UHGV virus genome: UHGV-0142786
DNA: 10,260 nt
Strand: one strand, 5' to 3'
DNA from: a virus
Position numbers and translations under genes: made by a program. Positions 1,640-10,157 of the stretch are shown here, in pieces (position 1 is the stretch's first letter; the number at the start of each line of letters is the position of its first letter). The notes below the pieces were generated by a model. That model worked only from the letters and a program-made list of their open reading frames with translations. It had not been told where the DNA came from and did not search any database.

Positions 1640-1779
1640 ACGTCCTCCTTTTCCTGCGGTAGTGGTAACACCCCTGTTGGTGTTCTTTCACACCGGAGAC
1701 ACCATCGATTCCAGTAAGGTTGATTTGGTCGGAAGCGGTTATCTTCTTTGCATTCACCGCACCGATAACATCGCATCAT
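1606..1779 (-). CDS. ninD: NinD-like small zinc-ribbon protein (57 aa)
   Basis: Hand translation [57 protein letters not shown] with two CxxC pairs. Length equals lambda NinD (orf57) and the ATGA overlap with the ninC stop is as in lambda. Confidence 0.6.
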
Positions 1780-2648
1780 GCAGCTTCCCTCCCGAAGTCG
1801 AAATCAAGCTGCCCTCCAAATATTTCGCATGACTCAGAACAAGAGCCGGTATCGAATCTTTTAGCTCGTACCATGTCCTGATACAGGGCTTGATAATCAT
1901 TTTCTGAATACATTTTCGCGATACCGTCCAGCGACATTCTTCCTCGGTACATAATCTCCTTTGGCGTTTCCCGATGTCCGTCACGCACATGGGATCCCGT
2001 GATGACCTCATTAAAAACACGCTGCAATCCCTCCTCATCTTTGCAGGCAAGTCCGATTTTTTGCGTTGATTTTTTAATGCAGAATATGCAGTTACCGAGA
2101 TGTTCCGGTATTTGCAAATCGAATGGTTGTTGCTTCCACCATGCGAGGATATCTTCCTTCTCAAAGTCTGACAGTTCAGCAAGATATCTGATTCCAGGCT
2201 TTGGCTTTAGCCGCTTCGGTTCATCAGCTCTGATGCCAATCCACGTGGTGTAATTCCCTCGCCCGAAATGGTCATCACAGTATTTGGTGAAGGGAACGAG
2301 TTTTAATCTGTCAGTGCAGAACGCGCCGCCGACGTATGGAGTGCCATATTTCTTTACCATATCGATAAATGGCTTCAGAACAGGCATTCGCGTCTGAATA
2401 TCCTTTGGTTCCCATACCGTATAACCATTTGGCTGTCCAAGCTCCGGGTTGATATCAACCTGCAATACGGTGAGCGGTATATCCCAGAACTTCACAACTT
2501 CCCTGACAAACCGATATGTCATTGGATGTTCACAACCTGTATCCATGAAAACGTAATACACGTCTTCACCTGCCTGTCGCTTTTGCTCCATTAGCCAGAG
2601 TAAATATGCTGACGTCCTGCCACCTGAGAAACTAACGACATTTATCAT
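1776..2648 (-). CDS. ninC: NinC, PAPS-reductase-like family protein (290 aa)
   Basis: Track ORF 1776..2666. True start taken as [17 protein letters not shown] (ATG 2648..2646), which overlaps the HNH stop as [12 protein letters not shown] resembles the PAPS-reductase/ATP-PPase P-loop. Near-identical to my recollection of lambda NinC. Confidence 0.85.
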
Positions 2649-3247
2649 GCAGCCCTGTCTCCCCATCTTGCTTTCATTGTTTCATTTGCAAATCGCCAGA
2701 ATCTTCCTTTGTGATATGAGCTTTCGCCATTACAGCAACGACTAATTGACGAACTATCAAATCCTTCTCTGACAGCATCCATAGCTGCTTCATAATAAAC
2801 CTCCTCACCAGTTTTCATGTCAGTAGAAATAACAGCTTTACTGGCAGGATGATCACCGCTAAATTTACCTAGCGATATAGGTATTCTTCCATTTTGTTTA
2901 TATCCGTGCTTTGAGTTTTCAGAATGTGATACCCATTCAAGGTTTTCAGCCCTATTGTCATCTCTTTGCCCATTTTTGTGATTAACTACCAAGCCATCAC
3001 AGAACCCTGTACAGAATGCTTTCGCAACTATCCTGTGGGCGCTGTATTTCTTACCGTATACCTTTATTTGAAGATATCCTGTCGACTTGCACTTGAATGG
3101 TTTTACGCTAGTGCCATTAATTATTTTCTTATATGGCCTCTGTCTGGTTGATGTTACTGTAACTTCCCTCGTAATAGACCTGAAATTTCCTTTATTGCTA
3201 ACCTGATAAAATGGAATCCCTTCGATATCTACCCAAACCTCAATCAT
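2645..3247 (-). CDS. HNH homing endonuclease (NUMOD4 + HNH_3 type), inserted at the 3' end of ninB
   Basis: 200-aa ORF. N-terminal EVWVDIEGIPFYQVSNKGNFRS resembles NUMOD4; HKNGQRDDNRAENLEWVSHSENSKHG is an HNH_3 motif. Own GGAGG Shine-Dalgarno. The last 9 residues KARWGDRAA equal the lambda NinB C-terminus. Confidence 0.85.
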   Translation of the reverse strand: MIEVWVDIEGIPFYQVSNKGNFRSITREVTVTSTRQRPYKKIINGTSVKPFKCKSTGYLQIKVYGKKYSAHRIVAKAFCTGFCDGLVVNHKNGQRDDNRAENLEWVSHSENSKHGYKQNGRIPISLGKFSGDHPASKAVISTDMKTGEEVYYEAAMDAVREGFDSSSISRCCNGESSYHKGRFWRFANETMKARWGDRAA

Positions 3248-3656
3248 AATTCCTCCATTCGCTAAGATGAATTGAGTTCATGGCACAATATGCTTCTATG
3301 TAGTCCATTATTTCGGATATTTTTTTTACAGATAGAGTCGCCGTACTCTCTCTGATGTTTATTAGCTCACCTTCTAACCCTGATATAATCTCAGGGTGCT
3401 GGTTGGTTGCAATTTGCCAACCAGAAACGAATAACCCCTTCCAAAACTCAATATTTCTTTCTTTTCCATGATATGTGGCCTTCTTACTTATTTCAGATAG
3501 CATCGCGTGAAGGCGTGCATTTTGCCGAATGCTGCGGTTGCGTTCCTGAATGGTTACTACGATTGGTTTGGTTGGGTCTGGAAGAATTTGCTGCACCGCG
3601 TGAATAGCGTTTTGCTGATGTGCTGGAGATCGAATTTCAAAGGTTAGTTTTTTCAT
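3240..3656 (-). CDS. ninB: NinB (Orf-family recombination mediator), mosaic and C-terminally altered
   Basis: Track ORF 3240..3674 starts at a TTG; the ATG at 3656 gives MKKLTFEIRSPAHQQNAIHAVQQILPDPTKPIVVTIQERNRS, identical to the lambda NinB N-terminus as I recall it. The rest is divergent but collinear, and it ends ...LSEWRNYD instead of ...[14 protein letters not shown]. Confidence 0.8.
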   Translation of the reverse strand: MKKLTFEIRSPAHQQNAIHAVQQILPDPTKPIVVTIQERNRSIRQNARLHAMLSEISKKATYHGKERNIEFWKGLFVSGWQIATNQHPEIISGLEGELINIRESTATLSVKKISEIMDYIEAYCAMNSIHLSEWRNYD

Positions 3657-3671
3657 GACTTCCCTCTCCCC

Positions 3672-3704
3672 CAAATAAAAAGGCCTGCGATTACCAGCAG
3701 GCCT
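3672..3704 (-). terminator. Rho-independent terminator on the minus strand between the replication genes and the nin region (tR2 analogue)
   Basis: Stem AGGCCTGC (3681-3688) / GCAGGCCT (3697-3704) with an 8-nt loop; on the minus strand it is followed by TTTTATTTG (rc of 3672-3680). Lies 30 nt downstream of the primase-helicase stop. Confidence 0.65.
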
Positions 3705-3733: not shown

Positions 3734-5614
3734 TTAATACTCCGTCACGTTTTCCTGTCGCCACGCCTCGTCATATTCCGATTTCGGCATATTGGCGATG
3801 TAGCTATATGGCGATCCTGATTCAAGTTGCAGGAACTGGTGCGATTGCTCATCAAGGAACAACGGGACGCCACCTTCCCAACCTTCGCCGTTACGTTGTT
3901 TTTCAAGCATCAAAACAGATGCCGGAGACGCCAGTACCTGTTCGTCCTTCTCTGACATCTTTTCACCACTCTGAACTCTCTGTAACGCTCTCTCGCGAGC
4001 CTTGTTACGCCAGATGATGAAAAGGTTGTCTGTCAGGTCTGTTATCGCTCCAGAGCCTTTTACGTCCATTTTCCCGGTTGGTTTTTCTTCGCTGTCTCCT
4101 TTTCTGGAGTGAGTAACGAGAATGACGTGGGAGTTTGTTTTGTTTTTGAAGTCACAAATCGAGTCAACAAATGCTTTCTGCCCGTTATAGTCATCGTCAC
4201 CTATGCCGCATTTCATCAGGCTGTCGATGATGAATAACTGGATCCCGTATCGGCGGCGAGCGTAGTCGAATATTTCGATCAGCCTGTCGGCTTTCGCCGT
4301 TCCGGTCAGGCCAAACACCCAAAGTCTTTCGTCATAAAATTTAAATGCAGAGTCAATTTCCAGCACTGGCGGCATCTTGCAGCACGTCGCCTGACGGGTA
4401 AGGCGCTTAAGGAGAATACCAGGCTTCAGCTCAAGTGACGCGATGCACGTCTTCACACCCTGACGCATTGCCTCAAGTGCCATATGCCCGACAACCTCCG
4501 TTTTTCCGTGACCGTTCACACCATTGACCAGCGTCAACTCTGCCTCACGGAACTGGAATTTATCTGCCAGAGATTCCCACGGTGGATTAAACAGATACTG
4601 CTGCTTGCCGTAGAAAGCGTTGATAGTGTCCTGGTAAAACTCTCGCGCGCTGTAGAGTTCTTCAGGGTCGAAGTAGGATGCCGTGCCGATGTACTGCCAG
4701 ATTTCATCCTCGGTAACACCGTTCATCAGGCATTCGTTGATGTCTTTGTACGGCAGAGTAACAAGACGGCAACGATGTTCACCGAGTCGGCTTGCGATTT
4801 CCCTTGCGGCTTCACGACCAACATCATCAACGTCCATCGAGATGAATATTTCCTCAAACCTGTCGAGATTGTGATACTCAAACTCAATCCACTGCTGCTT
4901 AGCGCCTTTCCCGCCACCAAACGGCACGGATAACGCCGAGATGCCGTATTGCGCATAGCTCATACAATCAATTTCGCCTTCGCAAAGTACAACCGCCCTC
5001 ACGCCAGCGTCCAGAGCCTGCCATCCGAACAGACAAGGTTCGCAATCACCTTCTGCCATAATGACTTTCTTCCCGTCCGGGCGCTCAGTGCTGATTCGCT
5101 TGACCTGCAACAACTCACCATCGCGTTTGTACGGAATCACCAGAGCATCCAGTTCCCGCTCTCCATTCCACACCTTGCCGCTGACAACCTCGTAGCGCTT
5201 TACGACTTCTGGCGATATGCCACGCGATTGCAGGTACTCAAGATGGGATTCTGTTCTGGTAACGTAGCGGGCGATTTTCTTGCGATCAGGTCTGGAGAAT
5301 TTCTTCTCACGTTTGGCATCGAAATGGTGATCGTCATCCTTGATACCGAGAAATGCTTTCGCTTCCTGCATAGCCTGATGCAGGTTAATTCCACGACATG
5401 CCATCCACAAATCAAGCATGTCACCGCCGTCTCCCTCAGCGAAATCAGCCCATTTTTTCTTTCCGCTAAGGTTGACCTTAAGGCTGTTTCCCTTGTCACC
5501 GTTGACGTTACCGGCAACCCACTCATGCCCCTCTTTCTTGCCGTTTGGCAACAGGTGCGGAGCCACCCTGTCAACCTGCGCCCAAAGCAGGTCGCTAAGT
5601 TCACTTGGCCTCAT
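3734..5614 (-). CDS. Bifunctional DNA primase/helicase (TOPRIM domain plus RecA-fold DnaB/T7-gp4-like helicase), 626 aa
   Basis: TOPRIM-like acidic motifs VVLCEGEIDCMSYAQ and ISMDVDDVG; Walker A GVNGHGKTE; Walker B-like LFIIDSL. Occupies the lambda P position downstream of the O-like gene. GAGGG Shine-Dalgarno 5 nt upstream. Confidence 0.8.
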   Translation of the reverse strand: MRPSELSDLLWAQVDRVAPHLLPNGKKEGHEWVAGNVNGDKGNSLKVNLSGKKKWADFAEGDGGDMLDLWMACRGINLHQAMQEAKAFLGIKDDDHHFDAKREKKFSRPDRKKIARYVTRTESHLEYLQSRGISPEVVKRYEVVSGKVWNGERELDALVIPYKRDGELLQVKRISTERPDGKKVIMAEGDCEPCLFGWQALDAGVRAVVLCEGEIDCMSYAQYGISALSVPFGGGKGAKQQWIEFEYHNLDRFEEIFISMDVDDVGREAAREIASRLGEHRCRLVTLPYKDINECLMNGVTEDEIWQYIGTASYFDPEELYSAREFYQDTINAFYGKQQYLFNPPWESLADKFQFREAELTLVNGVNGHGKTEVVGHMALEAMRQGVKTCIASLELKPGILLKRLTRQATCCKMPPVLEIDSAFKFYDERLWVFGLTGTAKADRLIEIFDYARRRYGIQLFIIDSLMKCGIGDDDYNGQKAFVDSICDFKNKTNSHVILVTHSRKGDSEEKPTGKMDVKGSGAITDLTDNLFIIWRNKARERALQRVQSGEKMSEKDEQVLASPASVLMLEKQRNGEGWEGGVPLFLDEQSHQFLQLESGSPYSYIANMPKSEYDEAWRQENVTEY

Positions 5615-5721: not shown

Positions 5722-6582
5722 TCACCTGTCGAAAAACACGTAGCCAGTTTTCGATACGGTGATTGCGGATGATGGTTTGGATTGTGGTTGAATGGTTTCT
5801 GGCTTTTCGTCGTTCCAGCGCTGACCGTTCAGGTAGCTCGATGGTAATAACCTGTCGAATCCGAACTGCTTACCATTCCTGCATGCGATGTCTTCTGCCA
5901 GCATCGTGGCAAACTCGCTTGCCGTACCCCTGGTAGTTTTACGCCATTCCCTGAACTGTGTTCTGAATGCCGAAGCTGCGTTTTTCTTCCCGGCCTTCCG
6001 CATGCCTGCACACCAGAATATTTCCTCGAATGCCTTGTCGGTTTCTTCGTGACGGTCAGGTGATTTTTCACACTCCGTCCGAACACTTTCGGACATAGTG
6101 TTTTTATTATTTCTTTTTTCTTTTGTAATAGTTTCTTTTGTGTGTCCCTGTTTTGGTGACAGCGCTGTCACCGTTTTGGTGACACTTTTTGTCACCAATG
6201 CAGTGACATTATCACCAGAGTAGTGACACCCTTCGATTTGCCATTCCTCGATGTTCTTGTTAGGCCCGATTTGCTGGCCTTCGCGAAGGATAACCTTCAT
6301 CGCGATAAGCTCATTCTTGGCCTTGTTTACCTTCTGTCTTGGCAGCCTGGTAATTTGAGCTAACTGACTATCAGAGATGCGATCCATCTTTTTACCGTAG
6401 CCGTATGTTTTACGGCATATGGCGTGGGCAACCTTGCTCTGATTTTTCGTTAAATCTGCGCCGATAAGCTCTTCATACAGGGCATTTGCAAGACGGGTAT
6501 AACCATCTTCAACTTCTGCCACACGACGCTCCACAGGCCGTTGTGAAGGCCTTAAATGTGTTACGGTTGCAAGATTACTCAT
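5722..6582 (-). CDS. Replication initiator with lambda-O-like N-terminal iteron-binding domain and a non-lambda C-terminal domain
   Basis: 286-aa [94 protein letters not shown] aligns with my recollection of the lambda O N-terminal domain. Iterons and an AT-rich tract lie inside the gene, as in ori-lambda. Confidence 0.85.
6093..6230. repeat. Candidate replication origin inside the O-like gene: four GTGACA-type iterons plus an adjacent AT-rich tract
   Basis: Perfect 18-bp palindrome GGTGACAGCGCTGTCACC (6155-6172); GGTGACACTTTTTGTCACC (6178-6196); GTGACATTATCACC (6204-6216); GTGACAC (6223-6229). AT-rich tract at about 6093-6150. In gene orientation: iterons first, then AT-rich, as in ori-lambda. 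Confidence 0.65.
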
Positions 6583-6753: not shown

Positions 6754-7050
6754 TCAGAATTGCATATCAATTTGCTTAAAATCCTCGGTGGCGGCCGGGG
6801 ATTTTTTCTTTGTGAGTCCATCAAGCGCATACTTAAAAGCCCTGCTAATCGGACTGATGTCTGATGCCATTCCGAAAGCACACAAGACCGAAGCAATAAA
6901 TCTCCAGTCCGTTCTGCTTATCTTCGATTCATGACAGCCAATCATCTTTGCCAGACCGCGCTGGGTAAGCGTTGACAGGTTGATGAGTAAATCAGTTTCA
7001 GCGCGATCAATTTCTCGCTGTGTTGGCTTGCTGTAACTTGTTTGTGCCAT
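6754..7050 (-). CDS. cII: CII-like transcriptional activator (98 aa)
   Basis: C-terminus [19 protein letters not shown] against lambda CII TNKKRPAATERSEQIQMEF; central [11 protein letters not shown] against lambda SQISRWKRDW. Lies between cro and the replication genes. Confidence 0.8.
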
Positions 7051-7135
7051 TTCTTAATATTTCCAATAGTGAATAGTTAGTTGAAAGGTATGCGTGGAAA
7101 CGCATATGGCCTTAGTTGGTCAGATATCTTGGGAC

Positions 7136-7181
7136 TCGCTTTTCAGCGACGTAGGACGAATGTCCGTTATTACAAAGAGCG
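7136..7181 (-). promoter_or_regulatory. nutR candidate: boxA-like CGCTCTTTG and boxB-like hairpin UCGCUGAAAAGCGA, 23 nt apart
   Basis: On the minus strand, boxA at 7181..7173 starts 11 nt after the cro stop; boxB hairpin at 7149..7136. Same architecture and spacing as the nutL candidate upstream of N. Confidence 0.55.
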
Positions 7182-7191
7182 GCTCCGCTTA

Positions 7192-7407
7192 TTAAGCAGC
7201 TTTGTGCTCCGGCGGGAACACATCATCAAGACTTACTTTTGCGCCTAACTTGTTTAGACACGCAACAAGAGCACGGCATGTTTTAAGGTCTGGGAAGCGA
7301 CGACCAGATTCCCAATGTCCGATAGCTCCCTGTGTGCATCCAACTGCCTTAGCAAGTGTTGTTTGAGAGATATTCAGTGACTCTCGATATTTTCGTAGGT
7401 TGCTCAT
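7192..7407 (-). CDS. cro: Cro-like HTH repressor (71 aa)
   Basis: Small HTH protein ([23 protein letters not shown]) transcribed divergently from cI, with a GGAGG Shine-Dalgarno. Confidence 0.8.
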
Positions 7408-7524
7408 ATGCCCTCCATAGTAACCACAAATAAAAAATACAATATGTACTCATTAAACACAAGCAAAAAATACACATTGTGCATGGATGGTTCCAGTACA
7501 AAGCGTAATAATAAGGACATGAAA
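7408..7524. promoter_or_regulatory. Divergent cro/cI control region (OR with PR and PRM)
   Basis: 117-bp gap between the divergent cro and cI starts. Two similar sites: AAAAAATACAATATGTAC (7433-7450) and AAAAAATACACATTGTGC (7465-7482), the second holding the palindrome CACATTGTG. Exact -10/-35 boxes not resolved. Confidence 0.55.
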
Positions 7525-8178
7525 ATGAAATGGTATGAACTGGCTAGATCCAGAATGAAAGAGCTCGGCATAACTCAAGAGAAGTTAGCCGAAGAGCTAG
7601 GTATGACGCAGGGTGGAATTGGACACTGGTTGCGCGGATCTCGTCATCCATCTCTTAGTGATATTGGTGTGGTGTTTAAATACCTTGGTATTGATAACAT
7701 ATCATTCAACCACGACGGGACATTTTCACCTGTTGGCGAATACTCATCGGCCCCAGTTAAAAAACAATATGAGTACCCTGTTTTTTCTCATGTTCAGGCT
7801 GGGATGTTCTCTCCAGAACTCAGAACCTTTACCAAAGGCGATGCGGAGAGATTGGTAAGCACAACCAAAAAAGCCAGTGACTCTGCATTCTGGCTTGAGG
7901 TTGAAGGTAACTCAATGACCGCACCAACAGGTTCCAAACCTAGTTTTCCTGACGGGATGTTAATTCTGGTTGACCCAGAGCAAGCTGTTGAGCCCGGCGA
8001 TTTCTGCATAGCCAGACTTGGTGGTGATGAGTTTACCTTCAAGAAACTGATCAGGGATAGCGGTCAGGTGTTTCTACAGCCACTAAACCCACAATACCCA
8101 ATGATCCCATGCAATGAGAGTTGTTCCGTTGTGGGGAAAGTTATCGCTAGTCAGTGGCCTGAAGAGACGTTTGGGTAG
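7525..8178 (+). CDS. cI: CI prophage repressor: HTH N-terminal domain plus LexA/S24-type autocleavage C-terminal domain
   Basis: C-terminal domain from [14 protein letters not shown] to WPEETFG is essentially identical to lambda CI as I recall it; the N-terminal domain is unrelated to lambda. Track ORF from 7408 is over-extended into the cro start. ATG 7525 has an AAGGA Shine-Dalgarno at 7 nt; ATG 7519 is the alternative. Confidence 0.85.
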
Positions 8179-8366
8179 AGGCGAAGCAGCAATTGGTTTG
8201 ATTTGGTATTGCTATTTTTTCTCTAAAGTTGTTGAGCATTTTTCCGTTAGATAAAAATAGACGCAAATTTACATGATTTTTTTGTGCTGTATTGCTTGCT
8301 GAAAGCTAGGTTTTGCGTAAACTTCAATTACTCAAATTAGAGTAAACAACATATAGGACACCCCAC

Positions 8367-8588
8367 ATGAAAAAATCTGCAAAGCACTTTTTCAGCGCTA
8401 TGGGCTCTATCCTTGACCTTTGCCCAGCAGGTAGCTACAGCGAGTATCATTCAAATGCTACAGACATCGACCTTATCAACTCAGATTGGGTTAAGGTAGG
8501 TAGTTACGTTAGAGACGCTGTAACTGATAATGAGCAGAAAAAAATCCCAAAGAAAGCTTCAAACCGCCGCCCCGAGAAATCTTGTTAA
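8367..8588 (+). CDS. Hypothetical small protein (73 aa as read), first ORF of the rex-position cassette
   Basis: AGGA Shine-Dalgarno 8 nt upstream of ATG 8367. No homology recognised. The 3' end overlaps the next ORF by 59 nt across an A7 run. Confidence 0.5.
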   Translation: MKKSAKHFFSAMGSILDLCPAGSYSEYHSNATDIDLINSDWVKVGSYVRDAVTDNEQKKIPKKASNRRPEKSC

Positions 8589-9063
8589 CCAACCAACTCC
8601 GTTAGGGCGAGTTCAAGACGGTAAAACCGAACTGCTTATAAATGAGGTCGCAAAGAACCCTCAAGTTCTTGAGCGCCTCATGGACAGGCCAGATCTAGCT
8701 GGCATCATGATGCAGGTGACTCACACTAGATCAGGGCCACTCCCAGACGCTGACGAATTAGCTAAGTACGAAAGAATATCTCCAGGATTCGCTCGCGAAA
8801 TAATGGACATGGCTAAGGCTGAGCAAAAACACAGACACGAGTATTACAAAGCAGGACAGAGGGGAGCAATTTGGCGAGATCGACTCGGACAGATCTTTGC
8901 GATGACTTCTGTCTTTGTTTTCGCAGGAATTGCTTACAAGATGATTCAGCACGAGGCTTATGGCTGGGCTACCGGGCTTCTTGGTGCTGAGTTAGTTGCT
9001 TTAACTAGCGTGTTTATAATTGGAAGAAGAGACAAACCGAATCCAAAGCAAACTAAAAAATGA
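8530..9063 (+). CDS. Hypothetical membrane protein with two C-terminal transmembrane helices, possibly DUF2335-like
   Basis: 177-aa ORF. Motif LPDADELAKYERISPGFAREIMDMAKAEQKHRHEY followed by hydrophobic IFAMTSVFVFAGIAY and WATGLLGAELVALTSVFIIG. The DUF2335 assignment is from memory and unverified. No clear Shine-Dalgarno at 8530. Confidence 0.6.
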   Translation: MSRKKSQRKLQTAAPRNLVNQPTPLGRVQDGKTELLINEVAKNPQVLERLMDRPDLAGIMMQVTHTRSGPLPDADELAKYERISPGFAREIMDMAKAEQKHRHEYYKAGQRGAIWRDRLGQIFAMTSVFVFAGIAYKMIQHEAYGWATGLLGAELVALTSVFIIGRRDKPNPKQTKK

Positions 9064-9066
9064 GAC

Positions 9067-9093
9067 AACCCGGCTTCCGCGCCGGGTTTTCTT
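9067..9093 (+). terminator. Rho-independent terminator closing the cI/rex-position operon
   Basis: Stem CCCGGC (9069-9074) / GCCGGG (9081-9086), then TTTTCTTT, directly after the stop at 9063. Confidence 0.7.
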
Positions 9094-9277
9094 TGCCTAA
9101 CGCCCCCAAAAAAACACATAACCAATTGTATTTATTTTAAAATTAATAGATACAACTCACTAAACAACGCAATTCTGATCTCTCCCTACATCGCCGAGGC
9201 AATACACCCACGCTAAAAAACAACACTATTAAATACAAAGCGTTGTAAAAAACCACCCCTCAATAGAACAAATCGTA

Positions 9278-9306
9278 TTGACCAGATAAAGTACATATCG
9301 TACTAT
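9278..9306 (+). promoter_or_regulatory. Candidate PL promoter
   Basis: TTGACC (9278-9283), 17-bp spacer, TACTAT (9301-9306), upstream of nutL and N. TACAA/TTGTA palindromes nearby at 9234-9247 and 9124-9134 may be OL sites. Confidence 0.4.
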
Positions 9307-9352
9307 TTAATCATCAGCAGGACGCTGGAAGCCAAATGGAACAGACTGGCAG

Positions 9353-9398
9353 GCTCTTTAAACAACGTCGAACACTCGACTACGTGGCTGAAAAGCCA
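9353..9398 (+). promoter_or_regulatory. nutL candidate: boxA-like GCTCTTTAA and boxB-like hairpin UGGCUGAAAAGCCA, 23 nt apart
   Basis: boxA at 9353-9361 (GGCTCTTTAAACAA resembles rrn boxA); boxB hairpin at 9385-9398. Same layout as the nutR candidate. Confidence 0.55.
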
Positions 9399-9422
9399 GA
9401 CCACCCAACCACATAAGCTGTG

Positions 9423-9472
9423 GGATGCAATGCCGAAGCAACCGGCTCAGGAGGAGCTTCGAGATTGCATCG
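9423..9472 (+). other. Long imperfect hairpin in the N leader, candidate RNase III processing or translational control structure
   Basis: GATGCAAT (9423-9430) pairs with ATTGCATC (9465-9472); CGAAGC (9433-9438) pairs with GCTTCG (9456-9461). Lies between nutL and the N Shine-Dalgarno GGGAGG (9486-9491). Confidence 0.4.
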
Positions 9473-9496
9473 CCAAAGTTTATTCGGGAGGAATCT

Positions 9497-9769
9497 ATGT
9501 CCAGAAAAACAGAATTTAAAGGCACCGCAGCTTCTCGCCGTAGAGCTCGTCGTGCAAACCTGCAAAGTCAGGAGGCGATCAGCTCTGACAAACTACACAG
9601 GCCAACCCCTTCACGAGTGGTCTTACAATGCAAACGCAAACCAGTAATGAGAGCAGAAGTAATAACACTGACAACGTTGACCAGAAAATATGAAGGCTCA
9701 ACTTGTCTTCCAAATGTAGCCATTTACGCGGCAGGCTACAGGAAATCCAAACAGCTGACAGCAAGATGA
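9497..9769 (+). CDS. N: N-type transcription antiterminator (90 aa)
   Basis: Arginine-rich motif GTAASRRRARRANLQ near the N-terminus; C-terminus LPNVAIYAAGYRKSKQLTAR resembles my recollection of P22 gene 24 (LPGVALYAAGHRKSKQITAR). Track ORF from 9425 is over-extended; ATG 9497 follows GGGAGG. Confidence 0.8.
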   Translation: MSRKTEFKGTAASRRRARRANLQSQEAISSDKLHRPTPSRVVLQCKRKPVMRAEVITLTTLTRKYEGSTCLPNVAIYAAGYRKSKQLTAR

Positions 9770-9819
9770 CTTGTGTTGGTCGCCAGAAAATGAAATTAGG
9801 CAGCAAACCACTTATTTGA
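9766..9819 (+). pseudogene. Fossil 3' end of a lambda-type N gene (17 codons), recombination scar
   Basis: Translation MTCVGRQKMKLGSKPLI resembles the lambda N C-terminus ITCSGRQKIKGKSIPLI. Starts one nucleotide before the functional N stop, in the +1 frame. Confidence 0.45.
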
Positions 9820-10069: not shown

Positions 10070-10131
10070 GGAGCAATGTCGCTCGTAACTAAACAGGAGC
10101 CGACTTGTTCTGATTATTGGAAATCTTCTTT

Positions 10132-10157
10132 GCCCTCCAGTGTGAGGGCGATTTTTT
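10132..10157 (+). terminator. Rho-independent terminator (tL1-like) downstream of N
   Basis: Stem GCCCTC (10132-10137) / GAGGGC (10144-10149), loop CAGTGT, then GATTTTTTAT. Confidence 0.6.

Follow-up and report, generated by a model that had tools for sequence, protein, structure and literature searches.

The nut sites of lambda are composed of a boxA (CGCUCUUA), a spacer of 9 or 8 nt without a hairpin and a boxB with the pentaloop GAAAA (GAAGA in nutL), and the spacer is contacted by NusA and not by N (PMC2724277). In P22 the boxB loop GACAA has a looped-out C that touches the N peptide (PMC12550061). For H-19B, a nutR with two hairpins, the site employed by the Sen laboratory, has been described that is active with H-19B N and NusA both in vitro and in vivo (PMC3526286, PMC4499122), and the spacer of the H-19B site is footprinted by NusA and Rho (PMC3526286). 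The same elements as those considered here are labeled putative nutR and nutL in the records of VT2-Sakai (GenBank AP000422), 933W and HK106, in VT2-Sakai under the names "putative N-utilization rightward/leftward". The hairpin-spacer architecture was reportedly dissected in H-19B by Neely and Friedman in 2000, who are said to be the source of the "reducer" role of such a spacer hairpin, and boxA, NusB and S10 are said to be dispensable for H-19B N action.

Here we analyzed a stretch of 10,260 nt of the virus genome UHGV-0142786 (the window). Two elements in it are very probably nut RNA sites (nutR and nutL) of a lambdoid prophage that belongs to the lineage of VT2-Sakai and H-19B, their working status being predicted. 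The analysis shows their sequence and position, their homology to known sites, that both hairpins covary and that the loop type goes with the N type. The finding, although real, is ordinary and not new, given that sites of this type were previously annotated (VT2-Sakai) and experimentally studied in the relative H-19B.

Results

Position and gene context

A sequence-only reading of this DNA had placed a nutR on the minus strand and a nutL on the plus strand, and all of the elements were recovered in the sequence at these places and on these strands (Table 1). According to the ORF map and Pfam, nutR lies between cro and cII past pR on the minus strand and nutL lies between pL and N on the plus strand, i.e. 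both have the early-transcript placement of nut sites. This gene layout agrees with the annotated records of VT2-Sakai, 933W and HK106, and none of the genes N, cro, cI and cII is disrupted. The proposed identity of the sites and the strand and gene assignments are supported by gene positions, the presence of a cognate N, the annotation of these three phages and conservation. On the transcribed strand of both sites, boxB is preceded by a boxA resembling CGCUCUUUA. The boxB element itself is a short stem-loop (5-bp stem) with a purine-rich loop of the GNRA type (GAAA) and compensatory changes among relatives, and a spacer hairpin of the H-19B type is flanked by ACAAY (ACAAC in nutL and, with one mismatch, AUAAC in nutR) and UACG.

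Table 1. Features of the early region in the window, in order of position.
Feature	Position	Strand	Sequence or product	Remark
cII	6754..7050	-	98 aa, Phage_CII	first gene past nutR and tR1
tR1-like region	7081..7106	-		VT2-Sakai annotation mapped via 98% identical alignment
nutR boxB	7136..7149	-	TCGCTGAAAAGCGA, UCGCU-GAAA-AGCGA	5-bp stem, GNRA tetraloop
nutR spacer	7150..7172	-	UAAUAAC + hairpin + UACG	23 nt; ACAAY/UACG flanks kept family-wide
nutR spacer hairpin	7154..7165	-	GGACattcGTCC, GGAC-AUUC-GUCC	pair probability 0.97-0.98
nutR boxA	7173..7181	-	CGCUCUUUG (9-mer of the sequence-only reading, CGCTCTTTG)	homologous base starts VT2-Sakai nutR feature
cro	7192..7407	-	71 aa, HTH_3	upstream of nutR, pR transcript
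cI repressor	7522..8178	+	218 aa, HTH_3 + Peptidase_S24	
pL-like promoter	9278..9306	+	TTGACC-17-TACTAT	aligns with VT2-Sakai "putative major leftward promoter"
nutL boxA, nutR register	9352..9360	+	GGCUCUUUA	homologous G starts VT2-Sakai nutL feature
nutL boxA, register of the sequence-only reading	9353..9361	+	GCTCTTTAA	
nutL spacer	9361..9384	+	AACAAC + hairpin + UACG	24 nt
nutL spacer hairpin	9367..9380	+	GTCGAacacTCGAC, GUCGA-ACAC-UCGAC	pair probability 0.88-1.0
nutL boxB	9385..9398	+	TGGCTGAAAAGCCA, UGGCU-GAAA-AGCCA	
Third hairpin past nutL boxB	9409..9423	+	CCACA-UAAGC-UGUGG	predicted fold
N antiterminator gene	9497..9769	+	90 aa, arginine-rich motif GTAASRRRARRANLQ	Pfam N_peptide PF25694
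Intrinsic-terminator-like hairpin + T-run	10130..10151	+		3' of N

The tR1-like region has its homologue in VT2-Sakai, annotated there as "putative rho dependent terminator for pR transcript", and contains a hairpin (AUGCGU-UUCC-ACGCAU, 7090-7105, minus strand) that is present in the predicted fold. On the other side, transcription from pL probably starts at about 9313, some 40 nt upstream of the nutL boxA, and the terminator-like hairpin 3' of N would be the first target of N-modified RNA polymerase on this transcript. Hairpins are also seen in relatives at the position of the third hairpin 3' of nutL boxB (e.g. CCAAAG-UGAR-CUUUGG).

The predicted N protein matched Pfam N_peptide with 112 bits (E = 2e-32) and shares 42% identity with H-19B N, the C-terminus being conserved, and a PDB sequence search with N gave nothing at E <= 10. 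No family was matched in an Rfam scan of positions 6900-9800 at E <= 1, Rfam having no nut model. The literature search found no experiments on exactly this N/nut pair, VT2-Sakai N and nut included, and no relevant description of a natural GAAA-tetraloop boxB. As no complete E. coli genome matches more than 62% of the window, the window is a mosaic.

Neither motif was unusual when taken alone (GCTCTTT, 3 occurrences in the window with 2.0 expected; GCTGAAAAGC with one mismatch permitted, 3 occurrences with 1.1 expected). The combined pattern GCTCTTT-N15-35-GCTGAAAAGC had 2 matches in the window and 0 in 200 dinucleotide shuffles. This result, together with the right positions, the covariation across genera, the linkage to N and the intact genes, speaks against chance or relic motifs without function, an explanation that we consider most unlikely.

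Comparison with described nut sites

The nut regions of the window are 97-98% identical to those of VT2-Sakai and are essentially the same element; the Stx1/Stx2 phages of Morioka V526 and the PA-series phages were grouped with VT2-Sakai as the same type. VT2-Sakai agrees with the window in boxA, in the spacer hairpin of nutR, in having a GAAA boxB and an N of 90 aa, and in the order of the genes, and its annotated features begin at the same boxA bases. The two differ by one substitution in the nutR spacer (AAUAAC in the window, AACAAC in VT2-Sakai), in the nutL spacer (24 nt with the loop ACAC in the window, one base less, 23 nt with the loop CUC, in VT2-Sakai) and in the genes between cI and pL.

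The nutR of H-19B, 933W and HK97 has 92.6% identity to that of the window, and this group, together with HK106, has the same spacer hairpin (GGACAUUCGUCC), UACG linker, UCGCU/AGCGA stem and tR1 region. Both nutR sites span 46 nt from boxA through boxB, and the N proteins of the H-19B group and the window have N-terminal and C-terminal segments in common. However, boxB has a GACAA pentaloop in H-19B, 933W and HK106, the N motif of the group is GNSRSRRRERLKAKAL instead of GTAASRRRARRANLQ, H-19B N is 127 aa long compared with 90 aa, and in H-19B nutL the spacer measures 43 nt and holds two hairpins and boxA is degenerate (CGCACUACU), whereas in the nutL of the window the spacer is 24 nt long and boxA is near the consensus. 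Given that the loop is GAAA and not the P22-like GACAA at both window sites, the window represents a sister specificity class, the VT2-Sakai type. In Salmonella-phage nutR sites boxA is degenerate or missing. Judging from the near-consensus boxA, the NusB dependence of the window class may differ from that of H-19B.

The order of boxA, spacer and boxB is the same as in lambda, but the spacers are longer and hold a hairpin and boxB has a tetraloop instead of a pentaloop; the nutR boxA differs little from that of lambda (CGCUCUUA) and that of rrn (UGCUCUUUA). For the P22 type, a prophage of E. albertii (L179) served as the example. Its leader, between the start of pL transcription and the end of boxA (…GGCAGGCUCUUUAA), is homologous to the nutL leader of the window and the C-terminus of N (…CLPNVALYAAGYRKSKQLTAR) is common to both, whereas the P22-type spacer measures 9 nt and lacks a hairpin, and the P22 type has the boxB CGCGCU-GACAA-AGCGCG and the N motif GNAKTRRHERRRKLAIER. 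The nutL boxA with the following ACAA also resembles the rrn boxA-spacer UGCUCUUUAACAA (PMC2724277), as seen when the E. coli rrn antiterminator boxA-spacer (UGCUCUUUAACAAUUUA) is set beside window nutL (GGCUCUUUAAACAAC), and in some relatives nutL (UGCUCUUUAAACAAC) approximates the rrn boxA and spacer start. Antitermination in rrn requires neither N nor boxB, whereas in the window boxA is followed by a hairpin and boxB, with an N gene downstream.

Spacer length and spacer hairpin

The spacing between boxA and boxB had been reported as an identical 23 nt at the two sites. With both sites read in a common register, nutR has a spacer of 23 nt and nutL one of 24 nt, and the distance from GCTCTTT to GCTGAAAAGC is 26 and 27 nt, respectively; the apparent identity arose because the two boxA 9-mers had been read one base out of register (C-GCTCTTT-G and GCTCTTT-AA). 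The nutL length is moreover polymorphic in relatives. Among 80 loci with N at least 97% identical, nutL is 46 or 47 nt long and its spacer 23 or 24 nt, since the loop of the hairpin varies (CTC, ACAC, ACTC, ATC and GCAC), and in close relatives the loop is the only part of the nutL spacer hairpin that differs.

The short hairpin noted in each spacer was robustly predicted (pair probability 0.88-1.0). In nutR its sequence is identical in H-19B, 933W and HK106, and compensatory variants (GGCC/GGCC and GGGC/GUCC) occur in relatives, while other genera have the stems GGUGA/UCACC, GAUUCA/UGAAUC and GAUUCC/GGAAUC at the nutL spacer position. The elements are thus conserved in related prophages, many related phages having kept a common module of boxA, ACAAY, hairpin, UACG and boxB, which was found in eight enterobacterial genera (Escherichia, Salmonella, Enterobacter, Citrobacter, Atlantibacter, Kluyvera, Klebsiella and Tatumella). 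In the covariation analysis of the spacer hairpin, 99.2% of cells were paired, compared with at most 58% in slid controls, and 3/4 pairs had compensatory changes. The number of double-change cells was 54, compared with 14.1 +/- 3.8 after shuffling (0/500 shuffles reached 54), where many of the loci counted are close relatives and the counts are of non-independent events.

When folded, the hairpin (12-14 nt) leaves 10-11 single-stranded nt, close to the 8-9 nt of lambda, and it probably serves as a length "reducer" that folds away the extra bases. The long spacing had been taken as a sign of a distinct N/boxB recognition mode. Given that the extra length is accounted for by a covarying hairpin, the long spacer is no pointer to a new reading of boxB, and the spacer is the part contacted by NusA in lambda and by NusA and Rho in H-19B. 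Furthermore, one hairpin spacer type occurs with two boxB loops and two N motif classes, and spacing is therefore not a marker of the recognition mode.

An explanation that we consider unlikely is that the hairpin is specifically recognized by NusA, by N or, within the tR1 rut site, by Rho, and that the long spacer alters complex assembly. The nutL hairpin argues against this, as its stems and loops vary freely (CUC, ACAC, ACUC, GAGA, GUAA and UGGAU) with pairing alone kept, which favours a role of structure over one of sequence. In Rahnella (L188) and E. albertii (L179), natural sites with a GAAA or GACAA boxB have a short spacer and no hairpin and lie beside related N genes, and deletion of the dyad reportedly had little effect in the work of Neely and Friedman. 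On the other hand, the AUUC loop of the nutR hairpin is almost invariant, the ACAAY and UACG flanks are under strong conservation, the spacer of H-19B nutR is footprinted by Rho and by N+NusA alike (PMC3526286), and there is also a match between ACAUUC and the spacer of lambda nutR, CACAUUCCA, in which AUU is critical for NusA binding (PMC2724277).

Linkage of the boxB loop to the N motif

Compensatory changes were found in 3/5 pairs of the boxB stem among relatives, counted on a tetraloop-only alignment (the MAFFT alignment puts the tetraloop/pentaloop gap at the 3' end) in a set preselected for a 5-bp stem, in which 100% pairing is by construction. The closing pairs of nutL boxB in relatives are U-A, A-U and C-G, i.e. 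compensatory. The loop was GAAA in 79/79 nutL and 74/74 nutR sites of loci with a window-type N, and GACAA in 74/74 nutL and 73/73 nutR sites of loci with an H-19B-type N; the boxA of H-19B-type sites is CGCTATTTT. In all 148 of 148 loci, many of them close relatives and not independent events, the loop type followed the arginine-rich motif of N. This linkage persisted within the same cro and cII sequence clusters and also between loci with flanks at least 97% identical. The two nut sites of a locus thus have the same loop type, which changes together with the N motif; in Atlantibacter both sites have GCAA, a concerted change. There does seem to be a distinct recognition class, but its hallmarks are the GAAA tetraloop and the linked N motif, not the spacing.

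We tentatively propose, at somewhat less than even confidence, that the VT2-Sakai-type N/nut is a separate, non-cross-reacting antitermination class with a true GNRA boxB (GAAA/GCAA) and no looped-out base. The arginine-rich motif that would read the GNRA loop has the consensus G-[ST]-[AS]-[AS]-x-RRR-x-[RQ]-R-[AS]-x-LQ. Under this proposal the same phage backbones would host this class alongside the GACAA class, with recombination between the two, and the class switch in nutR would consist of a single-nt loop indel offset by a 1-nt spacer indel, keeping boxA-to-boxB at 46 nt.

RNA folding

RNA structure prediction supported the spacer hairpins at both sites and, in nutR, a centroid structure with two hairpins, but boxB of nutL was absent from the minimum-energy fold. 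In the equilibrium fold of nutL, a helix between boxA and the 3' strand of boxB displaces boxB (-17.1 vs -12.8 kcal/mol, a difference of 4.3). The probability of boxB was about 0.55 in nutR and about 0 in nutL, and the z-scores of the short-RNA folds were modest (-1.1 for nutR and -2.9 for nutL). Because equilibrium folding disfavours boxB in nutL, boxB formation must, according to the folding model, depend on co-transcriptional folding or N binding.

A further possibility is that the combination of a consensus boxA with a GAAA boxB makes the nut RNAs of the class bistable through boxA:boxB pairing, so that they act as switches in which boxA pairs with the boxB loop and 3' strand and times N/Nus assembly. 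We consider such a switch very improbable. The alternative fold of nutL is indeed more stable, with a boxB probability of about 0, and the boxB probability of VT2-Sakai-type nutR sites is 0.01-0.5. Positions 1-4 of boxA equal positions 2-5 of the boxB 5' strand at both sites (GGCU in nutL and CGCU in nutR), and the effect is limited to the class that pairs a consensus boxA with a GAAA boxB. However, consistent covariation is absent, with the boxA/boxB match broken in UGCUCUUU variants, Atlantibacter and Tatumella, and the G at position 1 of the nutL boxA is also present in the P22-type leader with a different boxB. Furthermore, the GCUCUUU/AAAAGC complementarity is an automatic consequence of a consensus boxA and an A-rich loop, and local closure of boxB should be kinetically favoured during transcription. 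The boxA:boxB helix was rejected as a conserved feature since no covariation maintains it.

Discussion

Binding, Nus-factor needs, the reducer role and antitermination itself are inferred. In the proposed mechanism, the pR (minus strand) and pL (plus strand) transcripts would each carry boxA, then the hairpin-holding spacer and then the boxB hairpin. The N-terminal arginine-rich motif of the 90-aa N would contact the GAAA-tetraloop boxB, the spacer would be taken by NusA and the consensus-like boxA would probably be bound by NusB/S10. The spacer hairpin most likely tucks in 12-14 nt, the ACAAY and UACG flanks being left as an effective single-stranded spacer of 10-11 nt. The complex would loop to RNA polymerase and allow read-through of tR1 before cII, of the terminator past N and of later terminators. 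The boxB loop would be the specificity determinant fitted to the N motif class, and the GAAA of the window may be regarded as the GACAA of H-19B and P22 less its looped-out C.

The gain for biology is small, as the sites were known from VT2-Sakai. For annotation, the analysis confirms the orientation and the early-operon structure of the prophage and identifies a 90-aa "hypothetical protein" of hundreds of E. coli genomes as the antiterminator N. There is a modest comparative value in a natural case of RNA loop/peptide co-evolution, with GAAA and GACAA boxB loops matched to the N motif class, and in a covarying "reducer" hairpin with good support. The loop/peptide pair or the hairpin could serve as a compact model of RNA-protein specificity switching, and the finding bears on early gene expression in Shiga-toxin phages.

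Identity and distribution of the nut sites

The window contains a lambdoid immunity and early region in an orientation opposite to that of the usual lambda map. All nut motifs quoted in a sequence-only reading of this DNA were found exactly as given, and the identity of nutR and nutL is well supported. The short nut pieces taken singly were of unremarkable frequency in the window; the composite GCTCTTT-N15-35-GCTGAAAAGC had two matches (0/200 shuffles).

Positions of the nut elements and neighbouring features in the window
Feature	Position	Strand	Remark
NinB	3240-3674	minus	
Primase-helicase	3734-5614	minus	
O	5722-6582	minus	
cII	6754-7050	minus	
nutR boxB	7136-7149	minus	
nutR spacer	7150-7172	minus	
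nutR spacer hairpin	7154-7165	minus	
nutR boxA	7173-7181	minus	
cro	7192-7407	minus	
cI	7522-8178	plus	
73-aa ORF	8367-8588	plus	without Pfam match
DUF2335 gene	8530-9063	plus	predicted membrane protein, 177 aa; overlaps 73-aa ORF
Terminator	9067-9088	plus	strong bidirectional hairpin, 3' of DUF2335 gene
pL-like promoter	9278-9306	plus	
nutL boxA	9352-9360	plus	
nutL spacer	9361-9384	plus	
nutL spacer hairpin	9367-9380	plus	
nutL boxB	9385-9398	plus	
Third hairpin	9409-9423		CCACA-UAAGC-UGUGG
N, 90 aa	9497-9769	plus	Pfam N_peptide PF25694, E = 2e-32
Intrinsic terminator	10130-10151	plus	

VT2-Sakai and many Stx1/Stx2 phages matched 71% of the region's length at 96.8% identity, and the nut regions proper were 97-98% identical to those of VT2-Sakai. 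In the VT2-Sakai record (GenBank AP000422) the features 'putative N-utilization rightward' and 'leftward' begin precisely on the boxA bases homologous to those of the window, and both sites are also annotated in the 933W and HK106 records. The window nutR is 92.6% identical to that of H-19B, 933W, HK97 and HK106; the H-19B site, a standard template in experiments, has been used for antitermination in vivo and in vitro (PMC4499122). The window nut sites are members of a known, already annotated kind, and the pL-nutL-N block was present in 772 of 5426 complete E. coli genomes.

In the RefSeq E. coli matches (H94-H98) N carries the label 'hypothetical protein' despite its strong N_peptide match. 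N and nutL 100% identical to those of the window were also found on two contigs of a 'Segatella copri' metagenome-assembled genome (L169, JAJXBQ010000280.1, and L180), which are almost certainly pieces of enterobacterial prophages that were binned wrongly. Between cI and pL (8367-9088) the cargo is unlike that found there in VT2-Sakai, and it makes up most of the 29% of the query that phage matches left uncovered. Cargo in the nin region (1776-3247, minus strand) includes a PAPS-reductase-like protein of 296 aa and a 200-aa protein whose E. coli matches are labelled NUMOD4 domain-containing, and a Toprim/DnaB-type primase-helicase replaces lambda P.

The boxB loop follows the class of N

The sites were compared among 80 loci with the window-type N, 80 with the H-19B-type N, 22 further loci from one genome per species and four Salmonella/Enterobacter phages. 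The boxB loop of the window is a true GNRA tetraloop, GAAA, whereas H-19B and P22 have a GACAA pentaloop, the C of which is looped out onto the N peptide in P22 (PMC12550061). Loop type tracked the class of the N arginine-rich motif with zero exceptions: loci with the window-type motif (GTAASRRRARRANLQ) had GAAA at 79/79 nutL and 74/74 nutR sites, and those with the H-19B-type motif (GNSRSRRRERLKAKAL) had GACAA at 74/74 and 73/73, respectively. N and nutR are separated by more than 2 kb of mosaic immunity region, and both N types occur within each of four cro-end clusters and one cII-start cluster; within shared cro/cII clusters the nutR loop matched the N type at 148/148 and 142/142 loci. Cross-class pairs were found with nutR flanks at least 97% identical. 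The nutR cores of loci L042 and L151 differ by one boxA base, a 1-nt indel and a substitution in the spacer and the single loop C, with two more substitutions directly 3' of boxB, and a distance of 46 nt from boxA start to boxB end is shared by the GAAA and GACAA classes. The 1-nt loop indel is balanced by a second 1-nt indel, of opposite sign, in the spacer's 5' part. Related N motifs (GSAAGRRRERRAALQ and similar) in Salmonella, Enterobacter, Klebsiella, Kluyvera, Citrobacter and Tatumella phages go with GAAA at both nut sites, and Atlantibacter has GCAA at nutR and nutL alike. These comparisons give good, though indirect, grounds for regarding the sites as functional and the loop as the specificity determinant; this remains a case of the known rule that every N has a boxB of its own.

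The distance from N start to nutR boxA was about 340 nt in a few IMG/VR loci (median about 2.1-2.5 kb), which suggests either deletion of the cI-cro immunity region or a mis-hit of the pattern.

Length and structure of the spacer

The sequence-only reading had described an identical 23-nt spacing at both sites, using boxA 9-mers (CGCTCTTTG and GCTCTTTAA) that are off register by one base. The distance from GCTCTTT to GCTGAAAAGC is 26 nt in nutR and 27 nt in nutL, and in a common register the spacers are 23 and 24 nt. Among 80 IMG/VR loci with N at least 97% identical (one locus without match), nutL was 46 or 47 nt long and the difference lay in the hairpin loop only (CTC in 34 loci, ACAC in 33, ACTC in 10, ATC and GCAC in one each). 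Since loop length varies in relatives, the identical 23 nt is no conserved property; with this detail excepted the observation is real.

The proposal that the long spacer implies a distinct mode of N/boxB recognition was not supported. Once the hairpin has folded, 11 nt stay single-stranded in nutR (UAAUAAC and UACG) and 10 nt in nutL (AACAAC and UACG), and the lambda spacers are 9 nt (CACAUUCCA) and 8 nt (AAAAUUAA) (PMC2724277). One type of hairpin spacer was found with two boxB loops and two N classes, and related N genes occur with short spacers lacking the hairpin in Rahnella (UGCUCUUUA-AGAAGAC-UGCGCU GAAA AGCGCG) and in a P22-type locus of E. albertii (9 nt), so length is no argument for new recognition.

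A recurrent module was seen at both nut positions: a boxA ranging from consensus to absent, ACAA(C/U), a hairpin, UACG and boxB. The hairpin stems vary by site and genus with pairing always kept (GGAC/GUCC, GGCC/GGCC, GUCGA/UCGAC, GGUGA/UCACC, GAUUCA/UGAAUC, GAUUCC/GGAAUC). In 31 distinct nut cores the outer four pairs were 99.2% paired (slid controls, at most 58%), with compensatory changes at three of the four and 54 double-change cells against 14.1 ± 3.8 in shuffled data, a value reached by 0/500. Compensatory pairs were also seen in the boxB stem (closing pair U-A, A-U, C-G; next pair G-C, C-G, A-U), a less independent result as that set was chosen for pairing.

The dyad symmetry of the nut spacer was reportedly analysed by Neely and Friedman (in Molecular Microbiology 38:1074, from 2000), who are said to have found that breaking one dyad arm inactivated the site and that compensatory changes or deletion of the dyad did not, hence the idea of a 'reducer'. 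The H-19B N reportedly needed NusA and not NusB or S10, and boxB is said to have been required and boxA dispensable. The spacer hairpin fits such a structural reducer. In nutR it may have a more specific role, in NusA or Rho binding; the AUUC of its loop hardly varies and is similar to the lambda nutR spacer.

Predicted boxA:boxB pairing

Spacer hairpins were robust in RNAfold predictions. However, boxA (NGCU-C-UUU) is complementary to the GAAA loop and 3' strand of boxB (nutL 9352-9398, nutR 7136-7181; locus L001 and many of L005-L084), and sites with both a consensus boxA and a GAAA boxB, the only class to do so, were predicted to favour, at equilibrium, a long boxA:boxB helix capped by the spacer hairpin. 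For the window nutL the predicted energy of this form was -17.1 kcal/mol and that of the two-hairpin form -12.8 kcal/mol, with a boxB probability of about 0; the probability was about 0.55 for the window nutR, about 0.01 for VT2-Sakai nutR with flanks and 0.9-0.99 for relatives without consensus boxA. No consistent covariation maintaining the boxA:boxB helix was seen among the compared loci. The helix is probably incidental to the presence of both a consensus boxA and an A-rich loop, and would be overridden by co-transcriptional folding and N binding.

Variation within the family

A third hairpin recurs 8-12 nt 3' of nutL boxB with differing stems (the window; H-19B, L002, upstream of N; L165-L168, L173 and L189), such as CCAAAG-UGAR-CUUUGG in H-19B and Salmonella phages and CCAAAGC-GUGA-GUUUUGG in Tatumella, and could be a boxC-like or processing element. 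The window boxA is near consensus at both sites. Before the ACAAC-hairpin-UACG-boxB core boxA is unrecognisable in many members (nutR of L165, L166, L168 and L172; nutL of H-19B and 933W), for example Salmonella phage S135 (...ACACCCCACAAC). As boxA is recognisable in some members and absent in many, dependence on NusB/S10 may differ within the family. What is new is slight and confined to the comparative evidence for a GNRA-tetraloop specificity class and its one-base switch relative to the H-19B class.
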